Shown: in pieces, positions 19,598 through 52,920 of the stretch
Layout: each line of letters begins with the position of its first letter
Position numbering within the stretch: the first letter of the stretch is position 1
Source of the DNA: a virus
IMG/VR virus record: IMGVR_UViG_3300045988_176633
Direction: 5' to 3' (one strand)
Length of the DNA stretch: 64,000 bases
Made by a program: the position numbers and the translations under genes
The notes under the pieces: generated by a model
Told to the model about the DNA's origin: nothing
Databases searched by the model: none
Seen by the model: only the letters and a program-made list of their open reading frames with translations

Positions 19598-20098
19598 TTA
19601 CAATTTTTTTCTTCGTGCATATTCAGCGATTAACAAACCATCAAAATCCGTATGATAATTAGAGTCTAATGTAGGAAATAACCTACATCCTATATCATGA
19701 GATGCTTTCTTCAACTCTTCAGAACCTTTGATACCTTTAGGTAGGAGTTCCTTTTGCCATTCTTTAGAATCTATGAATTGATAAGGTAAATTTAACATCT
19801 CAAGTGTTATTAATGTAGCTTCTAATGCTCTTAAAGCAGATGTAGTTGCAACAAAACGTGTAGGATTAACCATTGGTCTTTCTACTAAGACAAATGGAAT
19901 TATATCTTCTCCTTTCTGATAAAGTTCAAGTTCCTCCTTCAAGAGTACTCCGTTAATTCTTGTAATATTTTTTTTGGCTTTTGTATAATCCTGCTGTTTA
20001 ATGATAGGAGTTTTCCAAAAGCTAACCTCTGATTTATCTTCGGCTATTATACCAATAGATCCTGTCACACCATTGTCAATTCCAATATAATATCTCAT
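19598..20098 (-). CDS. RuvC-like Holliday junction resolvase
   Basis: N-terminal YIGIDNGVTGSIGII (RNase H-fold first Asp). C-terminal DGLLIAEYARR resembles the RuvC DAxAIA motif. Confidence 0.6.
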   Translation of the reverse strand: MRYYIGIDNGVTGSIGIIAEDKSEVSFWKTPIIKQQDYTKAKKNITRINGVLLKEELELYQKGEDIIPFVLVERPMVNPTRFVATTSALRALEATLITLEMLNLPYQFIDSKEWQKELLPKGIKGSEELKKASHDIGCRLFPTLDSNYHTDFDGLLIAEYARRKKL

Positions 20099-23000: not shown

Positions 23001-23184
23001 TCTTAATTGATCCTGTTATAGTCATAATATCAGAATCAAGAGAAAGAGCTTTACCACTACCATTTGAACCTTGGTCTTCTTCTGTGAGATTTTCACCGAC
23101 CAAAGTTACAACCCTATCCTCGAATTCATAATCGAAATCTTTGAACGATAGGAAGTTACTCGCTGTCATCCTTATTGGTTTCAT
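20095..23184 (-). CDS. sbcC: SbcC/Rad50-like recombination ATPase, intein-containing precursor
   Basis: Walker A GSNGSGK|..|SS is split by the intein. Long coiled coils with a CPKC zinc hook. Signature YSGGERAK and Walker B FISFDEV. Confidence 0.8.
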   Translation of the reverse strand: MKPIRMTASNFLSFKDFDYEFEDRVVTLVGENLTEEDQGSNGSGKALSLDSDIMTITGSIKMRDIKIGDKILGFNGKEQSVVATAPQGIIDCYRITFNDGTEVECNDEHLWKVASCYTPQNWKVVNLKDIMKQSIRCDCGTSKPYRYRIPTVEKIEYNHKDILIDPYVLGCLLGDGTLGCKIKGYSKSYYSQSRTILFTSKDDEILNRFQDKLPQGLYLKKQNNCNYRIQGSKDNDCDSMMTLLKTYNLYLQDSETKFIPKDYIFNDREIRLELLRGILDTDGYVDKKGLIELALISKQLIEDVAFVARSLGCLCHKITKMKSGYKKDGQYIECKDHYRLRIVPPKGLNLFHLSRKKERSLQGKKMNCINRRIVSIEYVGKKEMQCIEVSNKDGLFLTNNFVVTHNSSIQQIFYYSLIGSSLRGSSDKKLIRRGEKEARTHIEIWCPMRNETLYIDRVLPLKSSSKLTIKINDKDVSYATVKDGNDFILKWIGISAEDLRNYFIICKEYYKSFFKASNIDRLALISRFINFNKLDGVKDIISKEITKLNAEKRLLENDIYSLQGKLEVQMQNIDKETSRDFEKEKEIRISALEKEINEKYDIIDSWEKKRNFLEEQNSKLDKEIKSSKKMISVTNLELEKIPSIEEEEENLKLIKEELAKTNEGQKILLEKQEIIEAKRGEIRKQLRVILINLSGTITCPKCKYKFLTLKDTTLEEEEKKKKKLGEEEKDCIHSEEEVNKELIEYEEVLTELFGLKSEAEDSINSILDSTRKIKKRISELETTVFEKERIKKSKILEIDSLNQKISEENQKISSLKEKIEEVRETKSEINQSLIDSLNKDISLFQEQIESKQKEVDELSVQVIEKDRWVNRFKDFKMYLAAEQVKNIQNRANKILEKENSDLRLIVEAFKQDSKGNRKDEITPYVIRDEAESFWYYSGGERAKVEVATIIAFQQMINSTNPYGGLEFISFDEVTEGLSKEGLFDMVEALDSMLKFPVLVTTHVLDGSYLEKCKVLRIRKKDGVSKIVSQ
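21967..23049 (-). mobile_element. class 3-type intein (361 aa, Ala1) with a LAGLIDADG endonuclease, in the SbcC P-loop
   Basis: Starts ALSLDSDIMT and ends VVTHN followed by +1 Ser. Block B is GTEVECNDEHLW (W at B:12). Block F is EMQCIEV (Cys at F:4). Thr precedes HN. LAGLIDADG motifs are YVLGCLLGDGTL and LLRGILDTDGYV. Confidence 0.8.
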
Positions 23185-27491: not shown

Positions 27492-29507
27492 TTAGACAAT
27501 GTTTAATTGTATGATTTCACTACAATCCATGATAGTAATTGTGTTCTTCTTTTTCCAGGAATCAAACCTCACACAACCGTTTAAAACCAACAAAGTTTTT
27601 TTAGAATTGAGGAGAATGTCCCTTCTTTCTTTCCAGTAATCTGGGAAAAACACCACTTCTATGAAATCATAGTTATTTTCTAGGGTTATCTTAGCATATT
27701 GACCTTTTTTCGAAGACATTTCATCGATATTCAAAACATAACCACCTACCATAACATGATTCGTGTAATGATCAACGATATCTTCATCTTGTATCTGTTT
27801 ACCATCAACAAAATACGGCGTTCCCAATCCTCCATCTGTCACAATAGGAGAGAGGTATTTGTTAACTAAGTATTTATAATCAAAGAAACAGAACCCTGAT
27901 TTTCGTTTTTGTTGCAATAACCACCACCACTCTTGATCTTTTTTCCCTTTATCTTTAGCAATACTATACTCATCCTTCTTCTCATCTATCTTGATATTTT
28001 TCTTTTCTCGATAATTAAGAAGAAGTCTTTCTCGATCAGTTACCTTTTTAATTCCTTCAATAGAATCAAATGCACCACTATAAATCAGATTTTCAACCAC
28101 AGATTTGTTAATTGAAGAACCTTTTTTATTAAATCTGTCGATAAATTCATCAAAAGAAAAATACTCACCATTTTTAGTTCTTTCTTCCATCAATTCTTGT
28201 TGAGCTACATCGCCAAGTTGAGAAACCGAATTGAAAGCCCAGTAAATACTATTACTTTTTACATCAGAAACGATATTGGCTCCTGATTGATTTATATCTA
28301 CAGATTTGATCTGTATATTACCACTTCTCCTGATTTCATTTATATAGTAAGGATAGTCTTCTGCTTTAGCACGACTAAAAGTTACCGACCAGAATTCAAT
28401 CGGATAATGTACTTTCAACCATAGGGAATTGTATCCATTTATTGAATAAGATACAGAATGTGATTTGTTAAATAGATAGGAGGAGGCTTTTACAATTTCT
28501 TCCCAGAAATCTTTGGCATATTCTTCTGTCACTTTATATCTATCACAGTAACCCTTTATAAATTGACCTTCCAAAGATTTGATAACATCAATCTTCTTCT
28601 TACCCATCGCTTTACGAGCTGTGTCACATGTAACAAGATCCATACCTGCTAATTCATGCATAAGAGCCATAACTTGTTCTTGATATACAAACAATCCATA
28701 GGTGCTATTTAATATCTTCTCAGTACCCACATGATAAGTACACTCTCTTTCTCCTGCCTTCCTTAACAAATATTCTTCATGATAACCATTTTCCATGACA
28801 CCTGGACGATATAACGCTGCACAGTCACTCAACTCATCGACACTTGTTGGTTGCATCTTCACACAATAGGAAGATAAACCTTTAGCTCCAAAGTGGAAAA
28901 CATCTCCTAAGAATCCTCTTTGGAAAAAATCAAAGACCTTTGGATCGTCCTTTGGAATCTTATACAAATCGATCCTTTTACCATAATGTTCTTCAATTAG
29001 ATTTAAAATATCCGTAAACTTATCAAGTTGCTCAATTCCTAAAATATCCTCTTTTAAGAAACCTGCTTCATCTAATTCAAGACCTTCCCACTCACTTACA
29101 ATCAATCCTTTTTGACTTCTTACCGGACACCATTCATACAAGGTCTTTTCGTCAGGAAATATCATCATAGCACAAGCATGTATCGAAGAAGTCTTTGGTT
29201 GACCAAGTGATAACATCAAACAATTAAACATTTCTGCATGATCGTTTAGAAATTTCTTGACTTCTTCATATTTACAAGCTGTCTTAAAAAAATCTTCAAT
29301 AGTCTTGACTTTTTCTGTCTCTAAGATCTTGCAAATCCTACGGACCAATGGAATTGGAATTTTCTCTAGTCTTGCGAAATCTTGTATCGCTGCTTTTAAT
29401 TGTAGGGTACCATAAGTACCTACAGAACAAACTTGATCAATACCAAAACGTTGTTCCATATACTCTTTTACACGAGGCCTGGCTTCGCCAGGGAAATCTG
29501 TATCAAT
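27492..29507 (-). CDS. dnaE: DNA polymerase III alpha-type (DnaE) replicase, proposed exon 2
   Basis: The track ORF starts at M (29459), but the frame is open back to 29507. There it encodes IDTDFPGEARPRVKEY, the catalytic Asp motif PDIDxDF, directly after a UAG. Downstream QRFG..VCSVGTYGTLQLKAAIQDFARL is the DnaE palm/fingers. Confidence 0.75.
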   Translation of the reverse strand: MDTDFPGEARPRVKEYMEQRFGIDQVCSVGTYGTLQLKAAIQDFARLEKIPIPLVRRICKILETEKVKTIEDFFKTACKYEEVKKFLNDHAEMFNCLMLSLGQPKTSSIHACAMMIFPDEKTLYEWCPVRSQKGLIVSEWEGLELDEAGFLKEDILGIEQLDKFTDILNLIEEHYGKRIDLYKIPKDDPKVFDFFQRGFLGDVFHFGAKGLSSYCVKMQPTSVDELSDCAALYRPGVMENGYHEEYLLRKAGERECTYHVGTEKILNSTYGLFVYQEQVMALMHELAGMDLVTCDTARKAMGKKKIDVIKSLEGQFIKGYCDRYKVTEEYAKDFWEEIVKASSYLFNKSHSVSYSINGYNSLWLKVHYPIEFWSVTFSRAKAEDYPYYINEIRRSGNIQIKSVDINQSGANIVSDVKSNSIYWAFNSVSQLGDVAQQELMEERTKNGEYFSFDEFIDRFNKKGSSINKSVVENLIYSGAFDSIEGIKKVTDRERLLLNYREKKNIKIDEKKDEYSIAKDKGKKDQEWWWLLQQKRKSGFCFFDYKYLVNKYLSPIVTDGGLGTPYFVDGKQIQDEDIVDHYTNHVMVGGYVLNIDEMSSKKGQYAKITLENNYDFIEVVFFPDYWKERRDILLNSKKTLLVLNGCVRFDSWKKKNTITIMDCSEIIQLNIV

Positions 29508-30599
29508 CTATTGCCCCAAAGGGCTAGATGTCGGGAAGCGAACCCGGAGTTCTGACCTTCCCGACAAATCTTTCAATTTTTTTTACTTTCATGTTTAAAA
29601 ATTTTTTGATAATCTCTCCAATACTGTTCTCTATACCATTTTCCTCCAGAATTCAATTGATATAAATCTTTTTCATCTTCATTTCTATACCATCTTCTAT
29701 AATATTGATTTCTAACAGATAAATTCAAAAGATTCTCTTTGATTGTATTATTAAGATCTAAATTCTCTTTATCTTCAACAATTATCCAAAACCCTTTGAA
29801 AATATGATCTAATTGATTTCTATATTTTCGAACTGTATCAGGTTTAAGGTGTAAAAATTGTCCAGCTTCTTTCATACAACCAAACCTAATAATTTCTTCT
29901 GTTATTAGATTTATACAAAAGACAGGAATCGCTTTATTATTCTTTTCACCTTTAGTATCTCTATACTTTTTAAAAAACTCACTCAATCGAATTTTCTTTT
30001 CTAAAGACCACTTCTTTCCATAATTTCCATTATTCTTTCCTCTTTTTGTAGGAGGTTTGAATCCTCCTACACAACAATTTAACGTCTCTTCACTTTCAAT
30101 AAATATTTGATTTACAATGATTTCTTCTGCTTTTAACAAATCTTTCTTCTTCTTGAAATATAATAGATTTTCTCTTTTAAAAGAAGAATATCCATATTTT
30201 TCTACAGATCGTTTCAAATGACTAATTCCATATCCCAAAGATTTTCTCTTTATTATATTAGAATTGATTCCGTTACCTATATAACGATCTTTTATATAAA
30301 GAGAAGAGTGTATACCAATATAAATTTTACCATTTTGAATACATGTTGTTTTGTATAAAACATGATACAATTGACCTTCTCCTTTGAAAGGTTCAACACT
30401 ACAATCCATATCCTTTAATGCAAAGATAATCTCTTCATTTGTAAGATATAATTTCATCTCCTTCTTGTATATCCTTAGCTTCAACTAACATTTCTTTGTT
30501 TTCCCTAAAGATCTTACAATTAGTAGAAATATCCAACTCTATCTCTAAATTATCTTCACCTATTATTCTTACCATTTCTTTTTCAGTTTCTTTCCATAG
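29508..30599 (-). mobile_element. putative group I intron carrying a GIY-YIG homing endonuclease, interrupting dnaE (5' boundary uncertain: 30530-30599)
   Basis: A GC-rich structured 3' segment sits in AT-rich DNA. It has stems GUCGGGAAG...CUUCCCGAC and GCCC-UUUG-GGGC, then AAUAG (candidate omega-G) immediately before exon 2. An I-TevI-like ORF lies inside. The catalytic motif resumes in frame right after the stop. Confidence 0.5.
29573..30484 (-). CDS. GIY-YIG homing endonuclease (I-TevI-like)
   Basis: VLYKTTCIQNGKIYIG gives the GIY..YIG pair with 10-aa spacing. A NUMOD3-like GKNNGNYGKKWSLEKKIRLSE and a C-terminal HTH-like FGCMKEAGQFLHLKPDTVRKY follow. The real start may be M26 (30409). Confidence 0.75.
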   Translation of the reverse strand: MKLRIYKKEMKLYLTNEEIIFALKDMDCSVEPFKGEGQLYHVLYKTTCIQNGKIYIGIHSSLYIKDRYIGNGINSNIIKRKSLGYGISHLKRSVEKYGYSSFKRENLLYFKKKKDLLKAEEIIVNQIFIESEETLNCCVGGFKPPTKRGKNNGNYGKKWSLEKKIRLSEFFKKYRDTKGEKNNKAIPVFCINLITEEIIRFGCMKEAGQFLHLKPDTVRKYRNQLDHIFKGFWIIVEDKENLDLNNTIKENLLNLSVRNQYYRRWYRNEDEKDLYQLNSGGKWYREQYWRDYQKIFKHESKKN

Positions 30600-32072
30600 A
30601 CGGCCTTTGTTTAGAAAACGTTCGAACAACAAGCCATACCTCATAGGATCAACCTTAGTGATACCAAGTAAGTAAGTAACTAGACTTCCAGCCGCAGATC
30701 CACGACCAGCTCCTAATAAGATGTTGTTAGCACGACACCAATTAACTATATCTCTTAACACCAAGAAATAATCTTCAACTCCTCCAAATTCTATAGTACT
30801 TATTTCTCGATCTATTCTTTCACCAATAACATCCTCGCCATATTTATCAAGCAAATCGATATGTTCTTCTAAACCTTTGAAAACAAGTTCTTCAAACATT
30901 TCTTTGTTAGAAGAGTAAAGTTTTCTTTCTTCCTCTGTCATGATATATCTAGGAAGGTGTCTTTGGTTGGTTTCAAAGGTGTAATTGCATTCCGCACAAA
31001 TATCAACAAGATTCTCAACCGCATCCATGAAACTATCTAGAAACCTTTCAAAATCGTTTTCATTAAACAACGATTGTAACTCAAAAAAATATTCTTCACC
31101 ATTTTTAAAATACTGATTCTTACTCTCGTAATTCATGACACCAGCAATCTTGTTTAAACGGTTTCTTACTATGTAACCTTCTTTCTCTACATAGTAAGCA
31201 TCACACATCGCTACTGGTTTAATCTTTGAATCGAAAAATTTTTTCAAGTTTTCAAGGTACCAACGATCTCTATCTTCTTTCTCATAGACAACAGTATCTA
31301 ATTGATAATAAAATTGATGAGCGAACATAGTTCTCCAACCAACTGGTATATCTTCAAATCGAATAGTCTTAGGATCAAGGATACAAAATAAACCATTTCG
31401 ATTTTCAATGAAACTTTCGATACTTGTAAAACCATTTCCATCTACATTGAGAAGTTTGCTGATTTTCAGTAAATTCAACCAACCCTCTTCGTTTTTTACA
31501 AATACTTTCACTGAAAACAACAAATCTTTCTTTTCATCTTTTATAGGAATTTCCATACCAAAAATCGGATCTATCCCTTCTTTTTTGCAGGCTGATTGAA
31601 ATTTAAATACACCTGCTAAGCTCCCTTTTTCACAAATACCTAATTTTTGAATACCTAGAAATTTGGCTTTGTCAACCCAATCTTTATAAGAGCCGCAACT
31701 ATTCAACATCTCGAATGGACCATGAACACCTAGAAAACAAGGCAAGAGAAGATCTTCTTCTTGTAGATTAACCTTACCTAAATATTTCACTCTATTGAGT
31801 TTGATGTTCTTTTCTTCACCTCTATTAAACCAATACCAACAACCACCAAATTTGAATATATAACGATCGTATTCAGTCTTATCATTTACCCAAGTAAACG
31901 CTTCATCAAAAAAAACGGGATTCTCGTCATCATTCCACTGTAGTGGTTCAAACAATTCGTAAGATTTTCCATCTATAGAAAATAAATAACGATCTTGTTC
32001 TGTTTTCCGACTAGAAAATTGAATAAAATTCTCTAAAAGGTAAGCCTGTAATTCTTCATATAATTCTTTCAT
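30435..32072 (-). CDS. dnaE: DNA polymerase III alpha-type (DnaE), proposed exon 1 (PHP domain); ORF as read through into the intron
   Basis: PHP motif GVHGPFEMLNSCGS, then ...GRGSAAGSLVTYLLGITKVDPMRYGLLFERFLNKGR. The frame then continues to a stop at 30435. The ATG at 32072 (MKELYEEL) is preferred because the track start at 32105 lies inside the upstream terminator stem. Confidence 0.75.
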   Translation of the reverse strand: MKELYEELQAYLLENFIQFSSRKTEQDRYLFSIDGKSYELFEPLQWNDDENPVFFDEAFTWVNDKTEYDRYIFKFGGCWYWFNRGEEKNIKLNRVKYLGKVNLQEEDLLLPCFLGVHGPFEMLNSCGSYKDWVDKAKFLGIQKLGICEKGSLAGVFKFQSACKKEGIDPIFGMEIPIKDEKKDLLFSVKVFVKNEEGWLNLLKISKLLNVDGNGFTSIESFIENRNGLFCILDPKTIRFEDIPVGWRTMFAHQFYYQLDTVVYEKEDRDRWYLENLKKFFDSKIKPVAMCDAYYVEKEGYIVRNRLNKIAGVMNYESKNQYFKNGEEYFFELQSLFNENDFERFLDSFMDAVENLVDICAECNYTFETNQRHLPRYIMTEEERKLYSSNKEMFEELVFKGLEEHIDLLDKYGEDVIGERIDREISTIEFGGVEDYFLVLRDIVNWCRANNILLGAGRGSAAGSLVTYLLGITKVDPMRYGLLFERFLNKGRLWKETEKEMVRIIGEDNLEIELDISTNCKIFRENKEMLVEAKDIQEGDEIISYK

Positions 32073-32085
32073 ACGATTAAAAATT

Positions 32086-32128
32086 AAAAAGGGTCCCAAG
32101 TCCATTTTTGGACAACAGGACCCTTTTT
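32086..32128 (-). terminator. intrinsic terminator (11-bp outer stem with an inner hairpin)
   Basis: aaaaagggtcc ... ggacccttttt. Followed on the - strand by TTTTTAATTTTT. Lies after the stop at 32153. Confidence 0.65.
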
Positions 32129-32152: not shown

Positions 32153-32752
32153 TTATTCAGTGACTTCTTTCTGTTCCACATCAAAGTACTTTGAGATAAC
32201 CTTGTCAACAACAGAAAAATAAGTACCAACTTTTTTCGCTACTTGATAACAAGACTCATTACTTGTCAACAATTCATCATAAGCCTTGCTAGATTTATCA
32301 CCAAGTTTCTCCGGCTTTTCGCCTTTAGGCTTGTAAGTGAAGATTGTTTTTACACGAGGCTGTTTCTCTTTCTTCTGAGCTTTTTTAGCTTCACGTTCAG
32401 CCTTTTTCTTAGCCTTTTCTTCTTCTTTTGCTTTCTTAGCGGCTTCTTTTTCAACACGCTTTTCTGCAGCTAACTCTTTTTTAGTCTTCTTCTTTTCACC
32501 CGTTGGTTTTAGATCTGCTGCTTCTTCTGCGCTAATCTCTTCGACTTCACCAGCTTCTTCTTTTTCAGCGACAATAGCCTTTTCTTCTTCTTTTGCTTCT
32601 TCAGCAGCTACTTCGACAACAGTACTTTCTCCTTCTTTCTTTTCAGATTCCATCTTGTCGATCATTTCCACTAACTCTTGTTTGGAATATTTTCCATAAT
32701 CTTGGATTCCTAAACTCTCAGCTTTTCTACGCAATTCTAATAAAGATGCCAT
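32153..32752 (-). CDS. HeH/Rho-N-like domain protein with a Lys/Glu-rich tail
   Basis: N-terminal LLELRRKAESLGIQDYGKYSKQELVEMI (Rho_N/SAP-like helix-extended-helix), then a KE/AK low-complexity region. Confidence 0.5.
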   Translation of the reverse strand: MASLLELRRKAESLGIQDYGKYSKQELVEMIDKMESEKKEGESTVVEVAAEEAKEEEKAIVAEKEEAGEVEEISAEEAADLKPTGEKKKTKKELAAEKRVEKEAAKKAKEEEKAKKKAEREAKKAQKKEKQPRVKTIFTYKPKGEKPEKLGDKSSKAYDELLTSNESCYQVAKKVGTYFSVVDKVISKYFDVEQKEVTE

Positions 32753-32765
32753 TTTCTTTTAATTT

Positions 32766-33161
32766 TTAATCGTTTAAAAACTCATTTATTTTACTTTGAA
32801 TCTCTTCTTCAGTCTTATTTTCAATATACTTTTTATAAACTCGACGAACATTTGTATAAGAGTAACCTCCTATTTTTGCGATTTTATATAAAGTCCATTT
32901 TTTATGGTCTCTATGTTTTAGAATCGTCTTGAAAATCTCCATAGATGCTACACCAGCTTTTGGAGCTGTACGCGCTTCTCTTGATTTTTTCTTTTTCTTG
33001 AAACAAGAAAATTTAACGATTATAACTGGCAAATACAATTTCTTTCTCTCTTCTTCTTCAACCAAGACTAGAAGTTCTTGTTTAGAATACTTCTTATAAT
33101 TCTTGATCTTTAAAGCACTTGCCTTTTTTCTTAGTTCGTCTAATTTAATTATTGCTTCCAT
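32766..33161 (-). CDS. HeH/Rho-N-like domain protein with a C-terminal HTH-like segment (paralog of 32153..32752)
   Basis: LDELRKKASALKIKNYKKYSKQELLVLV. The C-terminal segment is WTLYKIAKIGGYSYTNVRRVYKKY. Confidence 0.5.
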   Translation of the reverse strand: MEAIIKLDELRKKASALKIKNYKKYSKQELLVLVEEEERKKLYLPVIIVKFSCFKKKKKSREARTAPKAGVASMEIFKTILKHRDHKKWTLYKIAKIGGYSYTNVRRVYKKYIENKTEEEIQSKINEFLND

Positions 33162-33259: not shown

Positions 33260-33841
33260 TTAAGACTTTTTAAGTTTACAATCTTTCATAAGGATTTTCT
33301 TAATGAACTTAACTCTGTCAGTAACAGAGCAATTAGGAATGATTGTGTAATCAACAAGACTGTGATAGAGGATATTTTGTATTTCAAGATCCCAGTGTTT
33401 TCTACGTTCTTCATCAAAGAGCCTTTCTCCATCATCGACAGAATCCCAGTAAATTGGGAAGTAAAATATCTTACCTATTCTATCAATATTTTGAGCCAAT
33501 ATCCTTCTCTCACGATTCAATTCAGTCTTTACATTGATGTTCTGATCAAAAGTTCTTGTCATTGTAAAGACATCTATAATAGATCGATCAGATAAACATT
33601 TTGACATATCTAAGACTTTCACGTATTCGTCGAAAATCAATCCTTGATTTTTAATTGATTGAAAATTTCGATCGACACTTATCTTATCTTCCCGTATCAA
33701 TTTACGTGAAATAGATTCTTGAATACTCCATCCTTCGAAAATAGGGTCTTGTTTGAGTACATCAAACACACTTGTTTTCCCTACACAACAAGACCCTAAA
33801 AGAGTTACTTTATCTATTGTCTCCAGAACCATGGATAACAT
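33260..33841 (-). CDS. P-loop NTPase / nucleotide kinase-like protein
   Basis: Walker A LLGSCCVGKTS close to the N-terminus. About 190 aa, typical of small (d)NMP/nucleoside kinases. Specificity unknown. Confidence 0.45.
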   Translation of the reverse strand: MLSMVLETIDKVTLLGSCCVGKTSVFDVLKQDPIFEGWSIQESISRKLIREDKISVDRNFQSIKNQGLIFDEYVKVLDMSKCLSDRSIIDVFTMTRTFDQNINVKTELNRERRILAQNIDRIGKIFYFPIYWDSVDDGERLFDEERRKHWDLEIQNILYHSLVDYTIIPNCSVTDRVKFIKKILMKDCKLKKS

Positions 33842-34346
33842 TTCTTTGTTTACGAGAAGCTAACTTCTCAATGTTTTGTTGACCTTGTTGATTCATCGTT
33901 AAATCAAATACTTGATCGTTTATATCAACCATTATTTGCATAACCTCATTCCATGCACTTTGAATTTTCTCTTTTCTCTCTTCAGAAAGGGAAATCTCTT
34001 GATCTTCTTTCCAATCGTCCCTCAAATATTTTTTAATCTGTTCTGCAATCTTTCCTACTGAAGACGGCAAATCAAAAGGACCAACTTCTTTATCACTAGG
34101 CTTAGGCCAATCAGTAATTTCTTTTAAACTAAATTCAATACGAATAGCAGCTAAATACCACAGAATATCTTGAAACTCAGCTACAGTCGATTGATCATCT
34201 GCTTCTTGTTTTAACTTCTCATAGAATTCACCTAATTCTCCACACAAACCCAATGTAACATAAGGTAAAGCTACCTTATCAGAATAACACTTAGTCGTGA
34301 TAGCAAGTGCTTCATAAGAAGCATAATTAATTACTTTACTTTCCAT
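33810..34346 (-). CDS. mazG: MazG-like nucleoside triphosphate pyrophosphohydrolase
   Basis: LGLCGELGEFYEKLK ... FQDILWYLAA matches the MazG EXXE/ExxD helices. Confidence 0.7.
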   Translation of the reverse strand: MESKVINYASYEALAITTKCYSDKVALPYVTLGLCGELGEFYEKLKQEADDQSTVAEFQDILWYLAAIRIEFSLKEITDWPKPSDKEVGPFDLPSSVGKIAEQIKKYLRDDWKEDQEISLSEERKEKIQSAWNEVMQIMVDINDQVFDLTMNQQGQQNIEKLASRKQRNVIHGSGDNR

Positions 34347-34351
34347 ATGTT

Positions 34352-35149
34352 TTAAAACTTATTTTGAATTTGATTCATTTCATTATTTCCCTCACAAGAC
34401 TTGGTTGCAACCAATTTACAAAAATTAATAAATTCTTCTTGTGTCAATGTTGATTTCATAATATTTATACTTTTATGAACCCATTGAACGTTTCCTTCTA
34501 CATATCCTTTAAAAGAGTCGATTCTATCTAACGAAATAGTTGTCTCTAAACGACCTCTCTTGGAACCCAAACCATAATTCGAAACACATAAATCTATTCC
34601 CGATAAAGCACATTTCATATCTTGTTTCTCAAGTAGATCAGCTAAATATTCATCAGAAACAGACCATTCTAAATTTCTGGCTTCTGCTCCTTCTCGAGCT
34701 CTTCTAATAACTGAAGCATTCAAACATCCAATTTTCCGACTTCCTCTTCCTATTCTACAATCTTTACAACAAGTGCTTCGTTTGTTAGTTAAGAAAGTTA
34801 TTCTAACGTAACTCTCTTCTCCACAGTCACACTTAACTCTATAAGACCTTTCTTTATCAGAAGAAAGAAATTTGAAATCATTTACATCAACAATAGTCCA
34901 ATGTCCAAATCTCATACCATTTTCAACTTTTGTCCAATGTTTCGGTTTTTGCTTTCTTTCTGCGACAACAGATCCATACCTACACTTTAGACATTGTTTA
35001 GATGTACCTGTTTTCAGATCATAAAATCGCTTCGTCACAATTTCACCACATTCACACTGGACAACAATTCTACCACCTTTAATTACTTCTATTATGGTCC
35101 ACTTGCCATACTTATCTCCAACTTTAGGATAAATTGTTTCTAATTTCAT
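34352..35149 (-). CDS. free-standing HNH-family homing endonuclease-like protein
   Basis: Two (K/H)WTI(I/V)..C.CG....C..C zinc-ribbon modules. C-terminal SLDRIDSFKGYVEGNVQWVHKSINIMKS, a degenerate HNH common in phage HEGs. Confidence 0.55.
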   Translation of the reverse strand: MKLETIYPKVGDKYGKWTIIEVIKGGRIVVQCECGEIVTKRFYDLKTGTSKQCLKCRYGSVVAERKQKPKHWTKVENGMRFGHWTIVDVNDFKFLSSDKERSYRVKCDCGEESYVRITFLTNKRSTCCKDCRIGRGSRKIGCLNASVIRRAREGAEARNLEWSVSDEYLADLLEKQDMKCALSGIDLCVSNYGLGSKRGRLETTISLDRIDSFKGYVEGNVQWVHKSINIMKSTLTQEEFINFCKLVATKSCEGNNEMNQIQNKF

Positions 35150-35766
35150 TTGAGATTAACAATCATGTCAAAAAATTCTTTTCTAGATCCTATTTCATTA
35201 GTCTTAAAATAACCACTACAATAAGACGTCTGCATCGTTGAATCTTGCTCAATCCCACGTAATTTAACACACATATGATCTGCTTTAATAAAGACGATCA
35301 CACCCTGATTGTCGGGAATTATATCGTTAATATAGTCGTGAATTTGTTTCGTTAAGAATTCTTGAGTCTGAGGTCTCTTCGAAAGAAAATCCACAATTCG
35401 ATTCAACTTAGATAAACCAATGATATTCCCATCTTTTTTAGGAATATAAGCAACATGACAAACTCCAACTATACTTGCAAAATGATGTGCACACAAACTG
35501 TGTACCGGAATATTTCCTTGGAACACAATACCGTCATATTGGGATTCATTCGGGAAAACCGTGATCTTTGGTGGTTCTGAGTAAGCACCTGATGTCACTT
35601 CGTTTACATACATCTTTGCCACACGATAAGGAGTCTTCTTCATATTAGGATCATTTTCCCAATCATAACCTAAGGCCCTTAGAAAATTACCGAAGGCAAA
35701 CTCGGCATTTTCTAACATTTGTTTTCTTTGACTTTCAGTCAAAACTTTATTTTCTCCTGCTTTCAT
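35146..35766 (-). CDS. folE: GTP cyclohydrolase I
   Basis: VHSLCAHHFASIVGVCHVAYIP, IGLSKLNRIVDFLSKRPQTQEFLT and IKADHMCVKLRG. Confidence 0.9.
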   Translation of the reverse strand: MKAGENKVLTESQRKQMLENAEFAFGNFLRALGYDWENDPNMKKTPYRVAKMYVNEVTSGAYSEPPKITVFPNESQYDGIVFQGNIPVHSLCAHHFASIVGVCHVAYIPKKDGNIIGLSKLNRIVDFLSKRPQTQEFLTKQIHDYINDIIPDNQGVIVFIKADHMCVKLRGIEQDSTMQTSYCSGYFKTNEIGSRKEFFDMIVNLK

Positions 35767-35769
35767 ATT

Positions 35770-36573
35770 TTACGCTTCTCTTTTATTACCATATGCTAAT
35801 ATCTGTAGACGATCTGAATAGTTAAAACCACGTTTTAAACATTCTTCCATCAACCAAACTCTTTTCTCAGAAATCTGTTCAGGTGTTACACCTTCTGGCA
35901 TTAGATAGACTTGTGATCGAATAAACATAGCAAGCTTATCTTCGTCTTGATTATATAGTTCATCTCGAATCTTTAAAAGTTGTCCTTCTATCTCCTCTAA
36001 ATCCTTTTCAGATCCAACAACATATTTTAATTGAAAATCTCTAGCATAAATAATCCAATCCACAATATTAGAGATGTTCTCTCTTTCTTTGATATGCTTC
36101 TTTTCAATTTCTTTAGAATATTTCATTCCAAATTTTTCCATTTTCTCTTGAGTTGGAATACTTGATTCTAACTTAGGAGAGATAGAAGCTAAATCAATAG
36201 ATTTCATCACTGAAGGAGGTACTTTAATTGATCCATTTGTCTCAATAGTGATTGAAATAGGATAATCGAAATCATCACTATTACTTGCAAATTCTTCTAC
36301 AAGGTCTAAATGAAGACAAGGCTCACCACCTGTAATCATCATGTGATTTATACCTAAATTATCTTCGCAGAACTCTTGTACATCTTGTAATGTATACTTT
36401 CCTTTTTCAGGATTAAAACTAGAATAAGGTGTGTCACAATAAGAATCTTTGAAAGCACAACGAAGATTACAACCACTTAAACGTACCAAAATATGTGGTA
36501 CACCAGCTAACTTACCTTCTCCTTGTAGACAAGTGTGTAAGTCAATGATCGGAAGAATTTTATTTTTGTCCAT
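35770..36573 (-). CDS. queE: 7-carboxy-7-deazaguanine synthase (radical SAM)
   Basis: CLQGEGKLAGVPHILVRLSGCNLRCAFKDSYCDTPYS. Confidence 0.85.
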   Translation of the reverse strand: MDKNKILPIIDLHTCLQGEGKLAGVPHILVRLSGCNLRCAFKDSYCDTPYSSFNPEKGKYTLQDVQEFCEDNLGINHMMITGGEPCLHLDLVEEFASNSDDFDYPISITIETNGSIKVPPSVMKSIDLASISPKLESSIPTQEKMEKFGMKYSKEIEKKHIKERENISNIVDWIIYARDFQLKYVVGSEKDLEEIEGQLLKIRDELYNQDEDKLAMFIRSQVYLMPEGVTPEQISEKRVWLMEECLKRGFNYSDRLQILAYGNKREA

Positions 36574-37177
36574 TTTTAACTTGAAGATTTACTGAAGGAT
36601 TTTTAAAGAAAAAAGAATCTGATTCGTATTTGTTATTGAATATGAATGAATAAAGATCGTTGTCCCAATCAGACCAAACACCTTTTGAAACAGAAAAATT
36701 CAAAAGATTTGCAATCTCAGAGTTATTAACTAAATCTTCTTCAAAACAAGTAGCAGATCCTGTAGTCGTCTCGTGATACTTAACAGAATAAACTTTAATT
36801 CTCGATTCTCCATTTTTAAATTCCGTGTGATCTATAATCTCTTGAATCCAATAGAAGAAAAACATAGATAAACATTCTGCACTAGGATTGACTCCTAACT
36901 CAATCCAACGAGCGTTTTCACTTTTAATAAAATCACGATAATCTTTTTTATCCTTATTCCAAAGAACGTGACAATGATCAAAAGAATCGATGAATTGTTT
37001 AATACTACCTTTCATCAGACCGAAATCCATCAACATACCACCATTATCCAATTTATCGGCTGTAATTGACACTTCGAGTTTGAAACTATGTCCGTGTATC
37101 GAATGACTACATCTAATAGATGTACAATTTCGAACTATGTGAGACATCTCACCTGTGAAAATTTTTGTAACAATCAT
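36560..37177 (-). CDS. queD: 6-carboxy-5,6,7,8-tetrahydropterin synthase
   Basis: FTGEMSHIVRN..CSHSIHGHSFKLEV...GGMLMDFG...FDHCHVLWN. At 205 aa it is longer than typical QueD. Confidence 0.8.
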   Translation of the reverse strand: MIVTKIFTGEMSHIVRNCTSIRCSHSIHGHSFKLEVSITADKLDNGGMLMDFGLMKGSIKQFIDSFDHCHVLWNKDKKDYRDFIKSENARWIELGVNPSAECLSMFFFYWIQEIIDHTEFKNGESRIKVYSVKYHETTTGSATCFEEDLVNNSEIANLLNFSVSKGVWSDWDNDLYSFIFNNKYESDSFFFKNPSVNLQVKNGQK

Positions 37178-37204: not shown

Positions 37205-37219
37205 AGATACTACTTATCT
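37205..37219 (-). promoter_or_regulatory. palindromic intergenic motif, degenerate copy 6
   Basis: agata-ctact-tatct preceded by taa on the + strand. The - strand GTATCTTTA ends 24 nt before the queD ATG. Confidence 0.35.
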
Positions 37220-37701
37220 ACCATTTCTTTAGCGAAGATGGCCACTAGTTTTAAGTTAGTTACGTACACATATGGTAGTGTTATGTCTTCCCCTTTAACA
37301 TTTAAAATGATTGAATCCTCATCTGGTATATTTGTCTTTACTTTGTAAACCTCTTTCTTATAAGAGACCATATTCCCAGCATGAAATAGATAGAATTTAT
37401 CCCAATAAGATATTGAAATATTTTTTTCTTGATTTGTTCCATATTGGAAGTTCGGCATCCCATATTCTTGGGAAAAACATTGTACAAAAAATTGATGGAA
37501 GGCTTTTTTCGAATCAAAGATTGAGATCATATGAAACTTTTTTGCCAAGTTTATGATCTTTTCTTTTTTCTTTTCAGCGATATCTCGATTCATTTTAATG
37601 AATTCAGGACGCTCATAAATTAATTCTCGTGTTTTAAACGAAAAATACTCCAATTGAAGGACTTGTAAAAATTCTGTTATGCTTAAATCTCTACTTTTCA
37701 T
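37210..37701 (-). CDS. hypothetical protein (163 aa)
   Basis: ATG ORF. No motif. Confidence 0.45.
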   Translation of the reverse strand: MKSRDLSITEFLQVLQLEYFSFKTRELIYERPEFIKMNRDIAEKKKEKIINLAKKFHMISIFDSKKAFHQFFVQCFSQEYGMPNFQYGTNQEKNISISYWDKFYLFHAGNMVSYKKEVYKVKTNIPDEDSIILNVKGEDITLPYVYVTNLKLVAIFAKEMVDK

Positions 37702-39123: not shown

Positions 39124-40574
39124 ATCACAGTGACTTCTTGAGTTTCTTTCTTCTTACCCTTACGTAGTTTATCCTTTCTCTCAGGTTTATCGGCAGTCGT
39201 TGATATAACTTCGGAACTATCATTGTATAAAGCCATAGTACGCTTACGATTATAGAACCTACCACGACCATAATCAGTAGCGATAGAAAAGATTTCTTGA
39301 CTACTCTTGTAATCACGAAGTTTGTCAACAAAGATCCTACATTTCTCATCTTTCTTCTCTTGCATTGTAATATTTCCAGTAAATACAAATGAATAAGGCT
39401 TCACAAGAGTTCTATCACCTTCAGTATTAGAACGGTCTATATGTTTCATTTCATTATTCCAGACATCCATAGGTACATCACCTGTTTGTGTAGCTGTTAT
39501 ACCAACCATTTTAAATTCGACACAAATATCTTTAAATAATTGTGAACATTTCTGTAATCTAAACTTAGTAAATTCTGGATCATTGTCTATCTTCTTGTTT
39601 ACACCAGTCATTAGAAGATCTAACGAATCGACGATCAATAGTTGTGGAAAATGACCATATACTTTTTGATATTCGATACATAGATTTCGAATATCAACCA
39701 TTGATGCTTGACCGAATTTTTCAAATCCATAGATATCAATATCTTGACCAAAAGATTTCATATCTCTTAAAGTTTTCATGATCTGTTTTTCATCTTCTTG
39801 TTTTAAAAGACCTTTTTTGATGTCTATGTAACTTTGATTTGTCCACATTTGATCGTATTTGTCTGTACAAGCATCAACACCACCTTCTAATTGTATGTGT
39901 AGCACTGAAATGCTTTCAAGTGCTGCTGCATATCCATGCCATTTTAATACGGTTGATTTTCCAACACCAGATCTCATAATCCACAATACCGTATCTCCTG
40001 GATCTGCGCCACCATAACTAATATCATCAAGACGATCAATTCCCAAAGAAACTTTATTTTGGACTTTAGCGAGCTTATTTTCATCATATCTCTTTTTCAT
40101 CCTTTCTTGAAATCCTTCAAATACTCGAATAAATTTTCCACCAGTCTTTCGAAGTGATATTTCTAATATTCTTTTACTTTCTTCTGCATTGACTTTAATC
40201 GCTTCATCTCTTTTACCTTCTTCGTATAAATCATGAACCTTTTTACTAAGAAGTTCAAACTCAGTCTCGCGAATAAAAGATTCTAGTTGATCAATAATTA
40301 ATTCTTTGTCAACTAAACGAGCCTTTTTAATTTCTTTGATTGATTCTTGAACAGAATCATTATCAGCATATTTCTGAGCAATAACTCCCAAAGAAGGTGT
40401 TACTTCTTTCCCAATGAATTGTTCGACAGCTTCTTTCAATAGAAACTTATAACCGACCCACTCTTTAGGAATTAATTGATAAGTCATATGACCCGAAACC
40501 ATTCTCATGATATTCCCATCAATGAACATCAATTTGAATAACTCTGCCATAAAATTTTCATTCAACTTTCTCAT
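39120..40574 (-). CDS. dnaB: DnaB-like replicative DNA helicase
   Basis: RecA-fold C-terminal domain with Walker A MRSGVGKST and Walker B LLIVDSLDLL. Overlaps the primase gene by 4 nt. Confidence 0.75.
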   Translation of the reverse strand: MRKLNENFMAELFKLMFIDGNIMRMVSGHMTYQLIPKEWVGYKFLLKEAVEQFIGKEVTPSLGVIAQKYADNDSVQESIKEIKKARLVDKELIIDQLESFIRETEFELLSKKVHDLYEEGKRDEAIKVNAEESKRILEISLRKTGGKFIRVFEGFQERMKKRYDENKLAKVQNKVSLGIDRLDDISYGGADPGDTVLWIMRSGVGKSTVLKWHGYAAALESISVLHIQLEGGVDACTDKYDQMWTNQSYIDIKKGLLKQEDEKQIMKTLRDMKSFGQDIDIYGFEKFGQASMVDIRNLCIEYQKVYGHFPQLLIVDSLDLLMTGVNKKIDNDPEFTKFRLQKCSQLFKDICVEFKMVGITATQTGDVPMDVWNNEMKHIDRSNTEGDRTLVKPYSFVFTGNITMQEKKDEKCRIFVDKLRDYKSSQEIFSIATDYGRGRFYNRKRTMALYNDSSEVISTTADKPERKDKLRKGKKKETQEVTVI

Positions 40575-43366
40575 ATCGTGTTTATTTGAACCGTTATATG
40601 ACTATCTTCACGAAGACTATTAATCGCTATGAATGAGCTCATACAAATATCGTCATGAGCACCAACAGCTTCTAATTTACCTCTGTCACTTCTAAAAGTA
40701 ATAGAAGAGAATTCACCAAAAACAATCTTCACCATATCTCTTGTTGGTCCTACTGCATATGGTATTTTTATTTGACCTCTTTCAAACATTGCCGAAAGAC
40801 TTGGTAAACCAGTATGAAGATCCTTCTTATTGCCTTCTGTTGTTGTAAAGGTCTCAATGTTTTTCAAACCTCTTTCCCTTGCTAGTCCACTTAAAATACT
40901 TTGAAAACCATTAGCTTCACATACAATTTTATTGGGTTTGAATAAAGTATTAAATAATACAATTTTATCAACTTGCTCATTGTGACTCATTCCTTTCTGT
41001 CTATGGATCGCTATCAAATAATAATTATCCATAAAATCGATCCCCCATACTGTGTAAACTGTATAGTCTGCACCGATATTACCAGAAACTGCAAAATCAC
41101 AACCAACAACAACCCTTTGTAATTTAAATGGAAAGTAATCAATGGTATCTGCAAAAGAAATATTTTCCATCCCAACTGTCGATCTCATTAAAAACTCATA
41201 AGGGAAAATGGTACTACTATCTGCAATAGGAACTACTAAGTATTCACGACTAAATACCATTGTACCTAACTCATCTTTTTTCTGAATAATATCATCAAAA
41301 GTATATCTATCTGGAGCAAGAGGACGTCCATCTGGAAATATTATCGGATACTCAAAGACTGCAAAACGTTTATCAGCTTTAATAATATTATAAAGTTCAT
41401 TAGGAGCAGTTGAATATGGTGTACCAGAAATCAAGAAATACCCATAAGGTTCAACAATGGGACTGATTGTCCCTCGAAAAGTTTCTTTTAATTTTTCTCT
41501 CTGTTCATCACTATAAATAGAACTTTCATCTGGCATATCATCAACTATAGCTGCACCAACATGTAAACCACGAATCATAGAATCTTTACCACGAACATGT
41601 AATATTCCTCCGTTTTCAGTTTCAATCATCGTCTCTCCTAATTTCGCTTTTTTATTAGGATTAAGTTTGTTACTTAAAATTGGATTTGTCTCTATTTCTT
41701 CAATGATTTTCCCAACGTGAACCTTAGCAAGAGTTATCATATTAGTAATCAGAGCGGTTTCCTTTCGATTCTTATTATCAATCGTATCACCAGCATAAAA
41801 AATTGGTTTTGTATAACTATATAATCTCCATAATGGGAATGCGTAAGCAAACTCATAACTATTATGAACAACAGTCCCATCTGATAATAAAAATTTATGA
41901 TCTCCATCTAAAGAAAAACCATAATAATCACCTTTGCCAACTGGAGTTATTGATAAACTACTTCTACTAAAATCTTGAATTTTCTCAATCTTTAGACATT
42001 TCTTTCTTTCGATCTTAGTAGGAATCGTGTCGATATCTCCAGAAATATTACATTGATATTGGATATTACCTTTTAAATCATATTTTTTACCATTTGTTTT
42101 TAATGTTGTACTAACAACTCTTTTTCTAACTGAAACACATCTAAATCCTAAAGATAAAGCTAATTGTCTAACATCATTTATTAATCGCTCATTTGAATTC
42201 GCAAAAATAAATGACTTTCCTCCATTTTTCTTAGTCTTCTCTAAAGAACCGTCTGTATCGATAAGACCTGCTAACAATTGAAGTCTCTGTTGTCGAGAAC
42301 TTCTCATATAAATATCTGGAATATGTTTATTTCTAAGAACATTTAACTTTTCGAGATTTTCATTAAGAAAATTTCTTTTTGATCCAGGAATATTTACAAT
42401 ACATGAATATAATTCTTTTTGATGAAAAGAACAAAATCTTCTTTTGTGAATCCCTCCCAATCTATCAGCATACTGATCCAAATAAAGACAAATCTCTGGA
42501 TCAATTGTAGTTATAACTTGATTATGAGAATTTCCATCACCTAACCATAATCCTAAAAAATAAGGTTCTATAGAAAGAGATTTTTCAGGAAGATCCCAAC
42601 CCTTAACTCTATATCCATAGATCTTTTTATATCTATATAACCATCTTTGAGGAATTTTTTCAACTGGAATCTCCTCTTTACAAATTTCTCTTCCTATATA
42701 TTTTTTACCTTTCGAACCATGATCAATATATTTTTCTTTATCCCATTGAATACAAACCAAATGACCCTCATTTACACAATAATCCTTTGCATAAGTCTGA
42801 TGAATTTTATACATAGGTGCTTTACCTCTATGCAATTGAAGAACTTTCCTTGGTGTTGAATCTGGTCCCATAACTAAATCACCGACTTTGACGTCTTGAA
42901 CTTTCTTTAGAGATCCATCATACATAACCACTAACTCATTGAGACTCATACATTTCCCAGAACCGCGACTACAAAGATAACTAGACCAAGGAAATAATTG
43001 AGTTAAATTCCCCCATTCTAAATTTCTCCATCCCATCATAAAATTAGATAAGACAGTCGCACAAAAATAATTGAAAGACAATATTCTCAATCTCTCATCC
43101 ATAGCTGCAGCTAGATTGTCAATGTACGAAAGATTTTCAGTATCTAACGATCTACCGAAATTCATTGCCATATCAGTTTGATTAACAATCTCTGTTAGAA
43201 GTTTATCTATGTCCTCAGAATAACCTTCTAACAATTGATTGATCGAATGTGCAGGCAATCTTTCAATTATATCGTTTGCCGCAGAATATAACCTCCTGTT
43301 TTGTAAGAGTGTAAATTTGCTAGCTGGTTTATCTTGTTCAGTCCAATCTTGTTGTTTGATTATCAT
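40571..43366 (-). CDS. terL: terminase large subunit, intein-containing precursor
   Basis: Walker A CSRGSGK|..|S is split by the intein. Walker B-like AAIVDDM and coupling motif ISGTPYS. RNase H-like nuclease residues VGCDFAVS, ANGFQ and HDDICMS. Confidence 0.75.
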   Translation of the reverse strand: MIIKQQDWTEQDKPASKFTLLQNRRLYSAANDIIERLPAHSINQLLEGYSEDIDKLLTEIVNQTDMAMNFGRSLDTENLSYIDNLAAAMDERLRILSFNYFCATVLSNFMMGWRNLEWGNLTQLFPWSSYLCSRGSGKCMSLNELVVMYDGSLKKVQDVKVGDLVMGPDSTPRKVLQLHRGKAPMYKIHQTYAKDYCVNEGHLVCIQWDKEKYIDHGSKGKKYIGREICKEEIPVEKIPQRWLYRYKKIYGYRVKGWDLPEKSLSIEPYFLGLWLGDGNSHNQVITTIDPEICLYLDQYADRLGGIHKRRFCSFHQKELYSCIVNIPGSKRNFLNENLEKLNVLRNKHIPDIYMRSSRQQRLQLLAGLIDTDGSLEKTKKNGGKSFIFANSNERLINDVRQLALSLGFRCVSVRKRVVSTTLKTNGKKYDLKGNIQYQCNISGDIDTIPTKIERKKCLKIEKIQDFSRSSLSITPVGKGDYYGFSLDGDHKFLLSDGTVVHNSYEFAYAFPLWRLYSYTKPIFYAGDTIDNKNRKETALITNMITLAKVHVGKIIEEIETNPILSNKLNPNKKAKLGETMIETENGGILHVRGKDSMIRGLHVGAAIVDDMPDESSIYSDEQREKLKETFRGTISPIVEPYGYFLISGTPYSTAPNELYNIIKADKRFAVFEYPIIFPDGRPLAPDRYTFDDIIQKKDELGTMVFSREYLVVPIADSSTIFPYEFLMRSTVGMENISFADTIDYFPFKLQRVVVGCDFAVSGNIGADYTVYTVWGIDFMDNYYLIAIHRQKGMSHNEQVDKIVLFNTLFKPNKIVCEANGFQSILSGLARERGLKNIETFTTTEGNKKDLHTGLPSLSAMFERGQIKIPYAVGPTRDMVKIVFGEFSSITFRSDRGKLEAVGAHDDICMSSFIAINSLREDSHITVQINTI
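41861..42952 (-). mobile_element. LAGLIDADG-type intein (364 aa) in the TerL P-loop
   Basis: Starts CMSLNELVVMYDG and ends GTVVHN followed by +1 Ser. LAGLIDADG motifs are YFLGLWLGDGNS and LLAGLIDTDGSL. Boundaries were checked codon by codon. Confidence 0.85.
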
Positions 43367-51865: not shown

Positions 51866-51992
51866 AATTAAGTTGTTTCCAACGATTCAAAGTTACTAAA
51901 ATGAAAGCAAACTATAACCAACAACAGTGTCAAAGCAAACTTTTTCAACCGCATAAAGATATCTACTTCCTTCATAACAAACAACATTTATT

Positions 51993-52874: not shown

Positions 52875-52888
52875 TTTAAATAAAACAA

Positions 52889-52912: not shown

Positions 52913-52920
52913 TATTCAAT

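Follow-up and report, generated by a model that had tools for sequence, protein, structure and literature searches.

The Cellulophaga phage phiST replaces its deoxyguanosine completely (100%) with 2'-deoxy-7-deazaguanine (dDG); neither dCDG, as judged by liquid chromatography-mass spectrometry, nor dPreQ0 or dADG is detectable in its DNA (PMC10516641). Within its gene cluster, CGPG_00067, a QueD-like T-fold protein bearing the signature LxxxHRHxF, was predicted to decarboxylate 7-carboxy-7-deazaguanine (CDG) and named DpdL, while CGPG_00065, a very divergent transglycosylase resembling tRNA-guanine transglycosylase (TGT), was named DpdA3 (PMC10516641). The phiST locus is ordered QueD, QueE, FolE, the MazG-like CGPG_00068, CGPG_00067, CGPG_00066 and CGPG_00065. 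Here, we analysed a viral DNA stretch of 64,000 nucleotides (IMG/VR record IMGVR_UViG_3300045988_176633; hereafter the window), in which a first-pass annotation had pointed out a queD-queE-folE operon without queC and proposed a 7-deazaguanine pathway that goes no further than CDG if the host does not provide what follows. The comparison with phiST suggests that these three genes are probably the front half of a phiST-type, QueC-independent dDG system, the remainder of which is encoded elsewhere in the same window.

The three genes of the operon are:

36560-37177, minus strand: QueD-like 6-carboxytetrahydropterin synthase, 205 aa, with a T-fold/PTPS domain at residues 3-146
35770-36573, minus strand: QueE, 7-carboxy-7-deazaguanine synthase of the radical S-adenosylmethionine (SAM) type, 267 aa, recognised by NCBIfam and by homology to phiST
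35146-35766, minus strand: FolE, guanosine triphosphate (GTP) cyclohydrolase I, 206 aa (PF01227)

QueD, QueE and FolE are real, tightly packed minus-strand genes (consecutive spacings of -14, +3, -4, +5 and -32 nt from QueD through QueE, FolE, an HNH gene and a MazG-like gene to a kinase gene), and their family memberships lie far beyond chance. They stand at the coordinates given by the first-pass annotation, with all the motifs it quoted present in the translations. FolE matches PF01227 with E = 7.7e-50 (169 bits versus a cut-off of 27), scores 166.1 on NF006826 (cut-off 162) and is 47% identical to phiST FolE (E = 6e-64). QueE exceeds the Pfam cut-off for Radical_SAM, each of the five NCBIfam models that fit it best describes QueE (lowest E = 5.9e-18), and it is 36% identical over its full length to phiST QueE (E = 2e-46). 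Among annotated QueE proteins, those of Cellulophaga phage phiST and its siblings come nearest to it, with that of Flavobacterium phage immuto next (33%), and an expanded radical-SAM triad, CX3CX6C, is common to it and to the phiST and immuto enzymes. QueD matches PF01242 (PTPS, E = 4e-21) and phrog_2389 (QueD-like, E = 8e-19); it is weakly similar to phiST QueD (E = 0.2), while QueE and FolE are clearly phiST-like, and it ends in a tail of ~55 aa that is absent from five reference QueDs.

A second locus of the same window, overlooked in the first pass, encodes homologs of DpdL and DpdA3:

5212-6123, minus strand: DpdL-kinase fusion protein, 303 aa, comprising DpdL (residues 1-~118), a linker (119-136) and a P-loop domain (~137-303)
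4431-5210, minus strand: DpdA3-family guanine transglycosylase, 259 aa, starting 1 nt after the stop codon of the fusion gene
3867-4313, minus strand: DUF4494 protein, 148 aa (PF14902, E = 1.2e-14), downstream of DpdA3

The N-terminal half of the fusion protein is 44% identical to phiST DpdL (E = 5.5e-30) and its C-terminal half 29% identical to CGPG_00066 (E = 1e-15). The gene starts with the ATG at 6123, the listed TTG start at 6174 lying upstream of the true one, and gene calls on 12 contigs give the same length of 303 aa for its product. The DpdL signature reads LEYPHRHMF here, in place of the CxxxHGH of QueD; it is nearly invariant in the family, with H35, R36, H37 and F39 each at least 90% conserved, and the protein is a predicted CDG decarboxylase. 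In an AlphaFold2 model (predicted local distance difference test, pLDDT, 84), two domains are joined by the disordered linker, and the N-terminal one matches E. coli QueD (4ntk). For the C-terminal domain, whose Walker A motif reads GRVCSGKT, Foldseek returned 3lw7, a complex with AMP (E = 1.8e-6, TMt 0.66), then UMP/CMP, adenylate and dTMP kinases. A search of the PDB with the single P-loop sequence gave noise only, and a 36-sequence profile was needed; this profile matched the AdkA-like 3lw7/3h0k (E = 7e-11), with Walker A, DxVR, DGxR and an Arg-rich lid aligned. Positions G13, G18, K19, R57, G88, R90 and Q91 are invariant in the P-loop family. As judged from the structural model and the sequence profile, the fused domain is of the nucleoside monophosphate (NMP) kinase type. 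The fusion of DpdL to such a domain is a new feature relative to the published system.

DpdA3 is 38% identical over 258 aa to phiST DpdA3, CGPG_00065 (E = 1.4e-56). By tblastn, it matches no phages beyond the published DpdA3 clade (Cellulophaga, Campylobacter and immuto), Chryseobacterium phage MA9V-3 and Weizmannia phage Youna2; identity reaches 43% with MA9V-3, and the immuto and Campylobacter proteins are weaker matches (~25% for Campylobacter). The AlphaFold2 model (pLDDT 95.4) retrieved from the PDB, at ranks 1 to ~39, tRNA-guanine transglycosylases exclusively, with E down to 5e-6 and TMq of 0.5-0.6 (Foldseek). An alignment of 40 homologs contains 29 invariant positions, including D52 (LDNGAGD) and D206 (STDSC), which we take to occupy the places of the TGT motifs TDSGG and FDCV and which are candidates for the two catalytic aspartates of that superfamily, the general acid/base and the nucleophile. 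The only conserved cysteines and histidines of the family are C115, column 127 (Cys in 75%), H183 and C208, and the absence of TGT zinc-site cysteines leads us to view the protein as a minimal barrel. The isoelectric point, considered as a proxy for DNA binding, was discarded as uninformative (family median 6.0 versus 5.97 for E. coli Tgt).

The window was placed in its genome as follows. Proteins identical to those it encodes are found on two human-gut metagenome contigs, 102,803 and 102,875 bp long; it corresponds to positions ~39-64038 of the latter, which is k127_68896 of ENA ERZ919584, and the fetched flanks are 100% identical where they overlap. Exact sequence extended it by 4.8 kb on its left side and by 8.7 kb on its right, and the last ~25 kb were taken from a ~96%-identical IMG/VR contig walked until it met the right-hand flank, which yielded a reconstruction of the whole genome as a circle of ~103 kb. 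By our own arithmetic, the segment that closes the circle measures 26.7 kb in this relative and 26.3 kb in the exact contig.

No QueC was detected anywhere in this genome. As the first-pass annotation had reported, the window lacks a QueC-type PP-loop, QueF and Gat-QueC: SGGxDS is absent from all stop-to-stop open reading frames (ORFs) of at least 50 aa, no ORF of at least 90 aa matches the Pfam models of QueC, QueF or TGT, and searches of the window with QueF queries and with the Gat-QueC of JenP1 were negative. Its suggestion that queC might lie outside the window can now be discarded on the basis of the reconstructed genome. QueC searches based on the E. coli, phiSM, Vibrio R11Z and JenP1 Gat-QueC proteins found nothing in the window and the reconstructed remainder, whether by phmmer with all four proteins, by a hidden Markov model (HMM; best E = 3.6) or by tblastn (best E = 0.048). 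Across the reconstructed whole genome, the PP-loop motif and QueF (two queries) were likewise absent, and Pfam found nothing related to deazaguanine on the remaining large ORFs outside the window. In a positive control, the E. coli QueC was sufficient by itself to find 313 phage records, Gat-QueC fusions included.

The genome therefore holds everything that can be looked for in sequence of a phiST-type DpdL/DpdA3 system, namely FolE, QueD, QueE, DpdL and DpdA3, with neither QueC nor QueF. All seven components of the phiST locus (shared with phi13:1 and phi19:2) have homologs in the window, both phages lack QueC, the orders QueD-QueE-FolE-MazG and DpdL/P-loop/DpdA3 both match, and a Bacteroidota-associated lineage is apparent. 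The window phage differs in carrying DpdL and the CGPG_00066 homolog as one polypeptide, in having its system split between two loci (33.3-37.2 kb and 3.9-6.1 kb) ~29 kb apart, in an HNH gene between FolE and MazG, in an extra AAA_28 kinase and in a QueD of another lineage (Cx4HGH, C-terminal tail). It is moreover a ~103-kb human-gut phage with a split DnaE-type polymerase, and its system is known from genes alone. The view of the operon as the precursor pathway of a QueC-less phage DNA-modification system is thus upheld, and the proposed halt at CDG is supported only in part: QueC is indeed missing, but DpdL and DpdA3 would offer a way onward. Because these two genes and the phiST-like order match a published QueC-independent route, neither of the other options raised in the first pass, namely host QueC or a novel derivative, is needed; the derivative would correspond to dDG, known since 2023. 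Taken alone, the queC-less operon is ordinary, since it is explained by a system published in that year.

In the scheme that we favour, FolE, QueD and QueE would convert GTP to CDG, a chemistry established for these families and assumed here for the orthologs. The T-fold domain of DpdL would then decarboxylate CDG to 7-deazaguanine, following the published prediction, instead of the QueC route to preQ0, and DpdA3, with its predicted TGT fold, would exchange the base and so form the new glycosidic bond. Most plausibly, the kinase domains and the MazG-like pyrophosphatase would manage the pools of GTP, deoxyguanosine triphosphate (dGTP) and deaza-nucleotides. The outcome would be dDG-substituted DNA resistant to restriction enzymes that recognise G. 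The published model has DpdA3 acting on DNA after replication (PMC10516641). Given a phiST-type system, we lean slightly towards the same order of events here, taking post-replicative action as the default because other DpdA subfamilies are reported to be DNA transglycosylases.

Downstream of FolE, the operon continues into three genes that the first-pass annotation had named as flanking it, and that phrog_3322, phrog_229 and phrog_2107 confirm; upstream of QueD lies a fourth gene of interest:

34352-35149, minus strand: HNH endonuclease, 265 aa (phrog_3322, phrog_374 and phrog_1035, E = 8.5e-23 to 5e-16)
33810-34346, minus strand: MazG-like all-alpha nucleoside triphosphate pyrophosphohydrolase, 178 aa (phrog_229, E = 7e-16)
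33260-33841, minus strand: P-loop kinase of the AAA_28 type, 190-193 aa (PF13521, E = 3e-8; phrog_2107 "thymidylate kinase", E = 2e-15)
37210-37701: 163-aa gene, a homolog of which precedes a MazG-kinase pair in MT835760.1

The MazG-like protein is 35% identical to phiST CGPG_00068 (E = 9e-25), and the AAA_28 kinase is homologous to kinase gp203 of the immuto DpdA3 cluster (E = 1.8e-6); it is uncertain whether this kinase takes part in the deazaguanine pathway. MazG and the AAA_28 kinase were considered as pathway-specific markers and rejected, as both families are widespread (that of the kinase notably in Streptomyces phages) and the pair occurs without CDG genes in MT835760.1. In this human-faecal phage fragment (our locus L199, 1546-3104), MazG and the AAA_28 kinase come immediately after the homolog of the 163-aa gene, so that the QueD-QueE-FolE-HNH block appears as an insertion/deletion polymorphism on that backbone.

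The HNH gene, which has no counterpart between FolE and MazG in phiST, is probably a mobile homing element rather than a pathway enzyme. Members of the same HNH family form in-frame N-terminal fusions with DpdL in Chryseobacterium phage MA9V-3, in the metagenomic protein P0070 and in L173, and the sites of the family comprise:

34352-35149 of the window: the gene between FolE and MazG
L114:6647-7528: HNH of the same family
P0070: HNH of the same family, fused to DpdL
L173:6965-8059: HNH of the same family, fused to DpdL

Its repeated landing in deazaguanine clusters may be due to homing or to a link in function, for example as a nuclease directed against unmodified DNA.

Several observations weigh against a phiST-type assignment. 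At the enzyme level, the best NCBIfam model of QueD, TIGR03367 (QueD, E = 1.2e-17), stays below its equivalog cut-off, as do all five QueE models, although sub-cut-off scores of this kind are often seen for divergent phage versions. QueD is also atypical in its Cx4HGH motif, one residue longer than the canonical CxxxHGH. DpdA3 has no match to the Pfam TGT model (PF01702) at E <= 0.01, hhalign against the single E. coli Tgt sequence gave a probability of 0.4%, and neither conserved zinc-site cysteines nor a C-terminal zinc-binding subdomain (CxCxxC...H) is present; a search of PDB sequences with the DpdA3 profile found no TGT either. As the methods using sequence only were not significant, the TGT assignment derives solely from the fold search and from homology to phiST DpdA3, whose own HHpred probability was 98.8% (PMC10516641). 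Regarding the genome, ~25 kb of the whole-genome QueC check were read from a ~96%-identical relative, with lengths agreeing within ~0.4 kb, and the MazG-kinase pair may belong to generic, backbone nucleotide metabolism, as it stands in MT835760.1 without CDG genes. Finally, no dDG was obtained when dpdL and dpdA3 were expressed together in E. coli, after which the authors suspected an "other unknown enzyme" (PMC10516641).

How the module is organised in other viruses bears on this suspected component. The survey used a DpdA3 profile, as a QueE-based survey of viral contigs had returned only near-identical phages. It yielded 80 IMG/VR loci, 75 of which were informative, i.e. had at least 1.5 kb upstream of DpdA3. 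DpdL, the P-loop kinase and DpdA3 follow one another in that order and on the same strand in 71 of these 75, and none of the 80 loci contains QueC, QueF or DpdN. In 31 of the 71, DpdL and the kinase form a single fused protein, and these loci fall into two separate DpdA3 clades, the gut clade and a group formed by loci L171, L182, L186 and L188 (neighbour-joining tree, no support values). Full-length fusions (294-319 aa) persist down to 30-45% identity, on contigs of ~100-120 kb. A 39%-identity relative (L110) displays the order ribonucleotide reductase, fusion, HU, DpdA3 and DUF4494, while in a more distant relative the fusion is directly followed by DpdA3. The DUF4494 gene comes after DpdA3 in all gut-clade loci and in L110, and in immuto it adjoins FolE; its product is possibly an accessory, so far uncharacterised, of DpdA3 systems.

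Of the cultured phages, only those of the Bacteroidota-phage branch have the P-loop partner alongside DpdL, several jumbo phages have DpdL alone, and the Campylobacter phages, which make dADG, have no DpdL homolog; DpdL therefore tracks the dDG type. Homologs of CGPG_00066 were stated to be absent from other deazaguanine phages (Cui et al. 2023, PMC10516641). The metagenomic loci show that this does not hold for the Bacteroidota-phage branch. Present in 71 of the 75 informative loci, and joined to DpdL as one protein in two separate clades, the kinase becomes a concrete candidate for the other enzyme suspected in 2023.

The same linkage feeds a less probable alternative, in which dDG is made before replication, at the nucleotide level. 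MazG would take dGTP to dGMP, both removing the competitor and supplying the substrate; DpdA3 would swap guanine for CDG or 7-deazaguanine on a mononucleotide and not on DNA; DpdL would carry out the decarboxylation; the fused NMP-kinase domain would phosphorylate 7-deaza-dGMP to 7-deaza-dGDP; and a host nucleoside diphosphate kinase and the phage DnaE-type polymerase would finish the incorporation. The NMP-kinase-like structure and profile of the domain fused to DpdL fit such a route, as do the near-obligate DpdL/kinase/DpdA3 linkage and its recurrent fusion, but sequence does not reveal which substrate the kinase domain uses, and, outside the Bacteroidota-phage branch, cultured phages with DpdL lack the P-loop partner. 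In phiST and the window alike, MazG borders the CDG genes, next to FolE, and the immuto DpdA3 cluster holds a kinase and a phosphoribosyltransferase; against this, MazG and AAA_28 kinases are frequent in phages that have no deazaguanine genes. DpdA3 itself, a minimal barrel of 259 aa without a zinc subdomain, is a further point in favour, yet no TGT-superfamily enzyme is known to act on mononucleotides. Complete replacement need not imply incorporation from the pool either, as post-replicative enzymes are able to reach full modification, T4 glucosylation being an example. From the literature, the 100% replacement seen in DpdA3 phages and the failure of dpdL and dpdA3 alone in E. coli (PMC10516641), as well as a modified-dGTP route proposed earlier for the Campylobacter phages (PMC6884629), speak for the nucleotide level, whereas the published model is post-replicative (PMC10516641). 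A literature search found no paper after 2023 on the mechanism of DpdL or DpdA3.

Distinctly unlikely is that the phage-encoded pathway ends at CDG, which would either be inserted as dCDG or be passed to host QueC to give dPreQ0 or dADG, as in the Campylobacter phages. QueC is truly absent, the decarboxylase activity of DpdL is a prediction, DpdA2 can insert CDG, though inefficiently, in E. coli from which queC has been deleted, and Campylobacter DpdA3 phages carry dADG although they have no QueC (PMC10516641). These phages, however, have no DpdL, whereas the window encodes an intact, signature-bearing DpdL 1 nt upstream of DpdA3, in an arrangement conserved in 71 of 75 loci, and none of dCDG, dPreQ0 and dADG is detectable in phiST, whose gene set is the same (PMC10516641). 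As for auxiliary metabolic genes that would raise the host supply of queuosine or folate precursors with no DNA modification, suggested in 2019 for phages with preQ0-pathway genes and no DpdA (PMC6884629), this reading is very improbable: the genome encodes DpdA3 and DpdL, the product of the pathway would be useless for queuosine synthesis without QueC, and all DpdA3 phages tested so far have modified DNA (PMC10516641).

With a phiST-type system as the preferred reading, the other described systems can be set beside the window. The closest cultured carrier is Chryseobacterium phage MA9V-3 (PV245944, 103,203 bp; DpdA3 43% and FolE 50% identical), which has a similar genome size, QueD, QueE and FolE upstream of DpdL, P-loop and DpdA3, and a class II ribonucleotide reductase nearby. 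It differs in that its DpdL is fused to HNH and not to the kinase, the P-loop gene being separate, and its system too is known from genes alone; the description of this phage does not recognise a DNA-modification system (PMC13120357). The Campylobacter phages of the CP220/Firehammervirus group share FolE, QueD, QueE and DpdA3, the lack of QueC and complete G replacement, but their DpdA3 is ~25% identical, DpdL is missing and the product is dADG, not dDG. Immuto has DpdA3, complete replacement, a 33%-identical QueE, and both an AAA_28 kinase homolog and a DUF4494 gene in its cluster, but it also has QueC, QueF and the formyltransferase DpdN, all three absent from the window phage, and no DpdL.

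More remote are the classical preQ0/G+ systems (9g, CAjan, Rosebush), which rely on the same first three enzymes and the same anti-restriction logic. They need QueC or Gat-QueC, modify G partially (~0.1-30%) and use DpdA1/2 enzymes detectable with the Pfam TGT model; the window phage lacks the QueC that defines them, and its DpdA3 is divergent. The 2-aminoadenine system of S-2L/PhiVC8 (PurZ, MazZ, DatZ; PMC8342488), where complete replacement is achieved by pool engineering, is an analogy only: a MazG-family (d)GTP pyrophosphatase feeds synthesis at the deoxynucleoside monophosphate level, which makes it a model for the pre-replicative alternative, but the base change is A to Z, the enzymes are others, there is no transglycosylase and the systems are not homologous.

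A dDG system at this locus would place complete base replacement in an abundant human-gut phage lineage, near-identical ~100-kb contigs of which occur in many gut metagenomes. Such DNA may be resistant to restriction enzymes that recognise G, to some enzymes used in molecular biology and to Cas9, and deazaguanine DNA of this kind is a target of recently described anti-phage glycosylases (bioRxiv 10.1101/2025.10.29.685425). The kinase linkage bears on whether the deazaguanine enters after replication or through the nucleotide pool and makes the question directly testable, with MA9V-3, which infects C. indologenes MA9, as a cultured model. Should the nucleotide-level route be true, the kinase would be the component missing from the failed DpdL and DpdA3 reconstitution, and DpdA3 would be the first member of the TGT superfamily to act on mononucleotides.

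The phage itself is an uncultivated, myovirus-like human-gut phage of ~103 kb, and no close phage relative of the locus was found by megablast against 50,697 phage records. Its host is probably a member of the Bacteroidota, as indicated by BACON-domain proteins (encoded outside the window at L005:16302-16904 and L104:15184-16671) and by the affinities of the pathway genes to Flavobacteriia phages. The window has a GC content of ~32%, no tRNAs and nearly all its genes on the minus strand. According to Pfam, the larger ORFs outside it include lysis genes, a sigma factor, the BACON-domain proteins, portal, capsid, a NUDIX protein and a PBECR1 nuclease. The NUDIX protein (706 aa, with DUF5856; L105:12451-14571), encoded in the head-morphogenesis region beside the portal and capsid genes, is possibly another nucleotide hydrolase. 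The genome is rich in inteins and homing elements, and the remaining features of the window include:

6792-10103: class II ribonucleotide reductase with an intein bearing an HNH_3 domain
20095-23184: 1029-aa ORF carrying a LAGLIDADG/Hom_end domain
27492-29459: DnaE-type Pol III alpha, remainder of the NTPase domain, fingers and helix-hairpin-helix (HhH) motif
29573-30484: 303-aa ORF between the two DnaE parts, without a Pfam match
30435-32105: DnaE-type Pol III alpha, PHP domain and start of the NTPase domain
40571-43366: large terminase with a Hint and LAGLIDADG intein
within 47132-59214: two giant tail-fibre-like proteins, 1577 and 2097 aa, with many CarboxypepD_reg repeats
51993-52874, plus strand: glycine-rich protein, the sole plus-strand gene of the window, between the giant tail-fibre-like genes

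The interruption of DnaE (27492-32105) may represent either a gene split in two or an inserted degenerate intein or homing element. The length of the plus-strand glycine-rich protein differs among close relatives (293, 337 and 317 aa). Two adjacent small proteins (32153-33161), each with an N-terminal Rho_N domain and one with a long Lys/Glu-rich low-complexity stretch, are encoded just downstream of the AAA_28 kinase gene, and a 200-aa ORF (17126-17728) gave a weak match to Nmad5 (E = 1e-4, below the cut-off) and one to phrog_15487, "DNA polymerase". Just right of the window lie three tandem 256-aa paralogs (L009:1-1711; also L008), whose copy number differs between near-identical phages and whose family is widespread in viral contigs, with 149 confirmed IMG/VR relatives of up to 52% identity.

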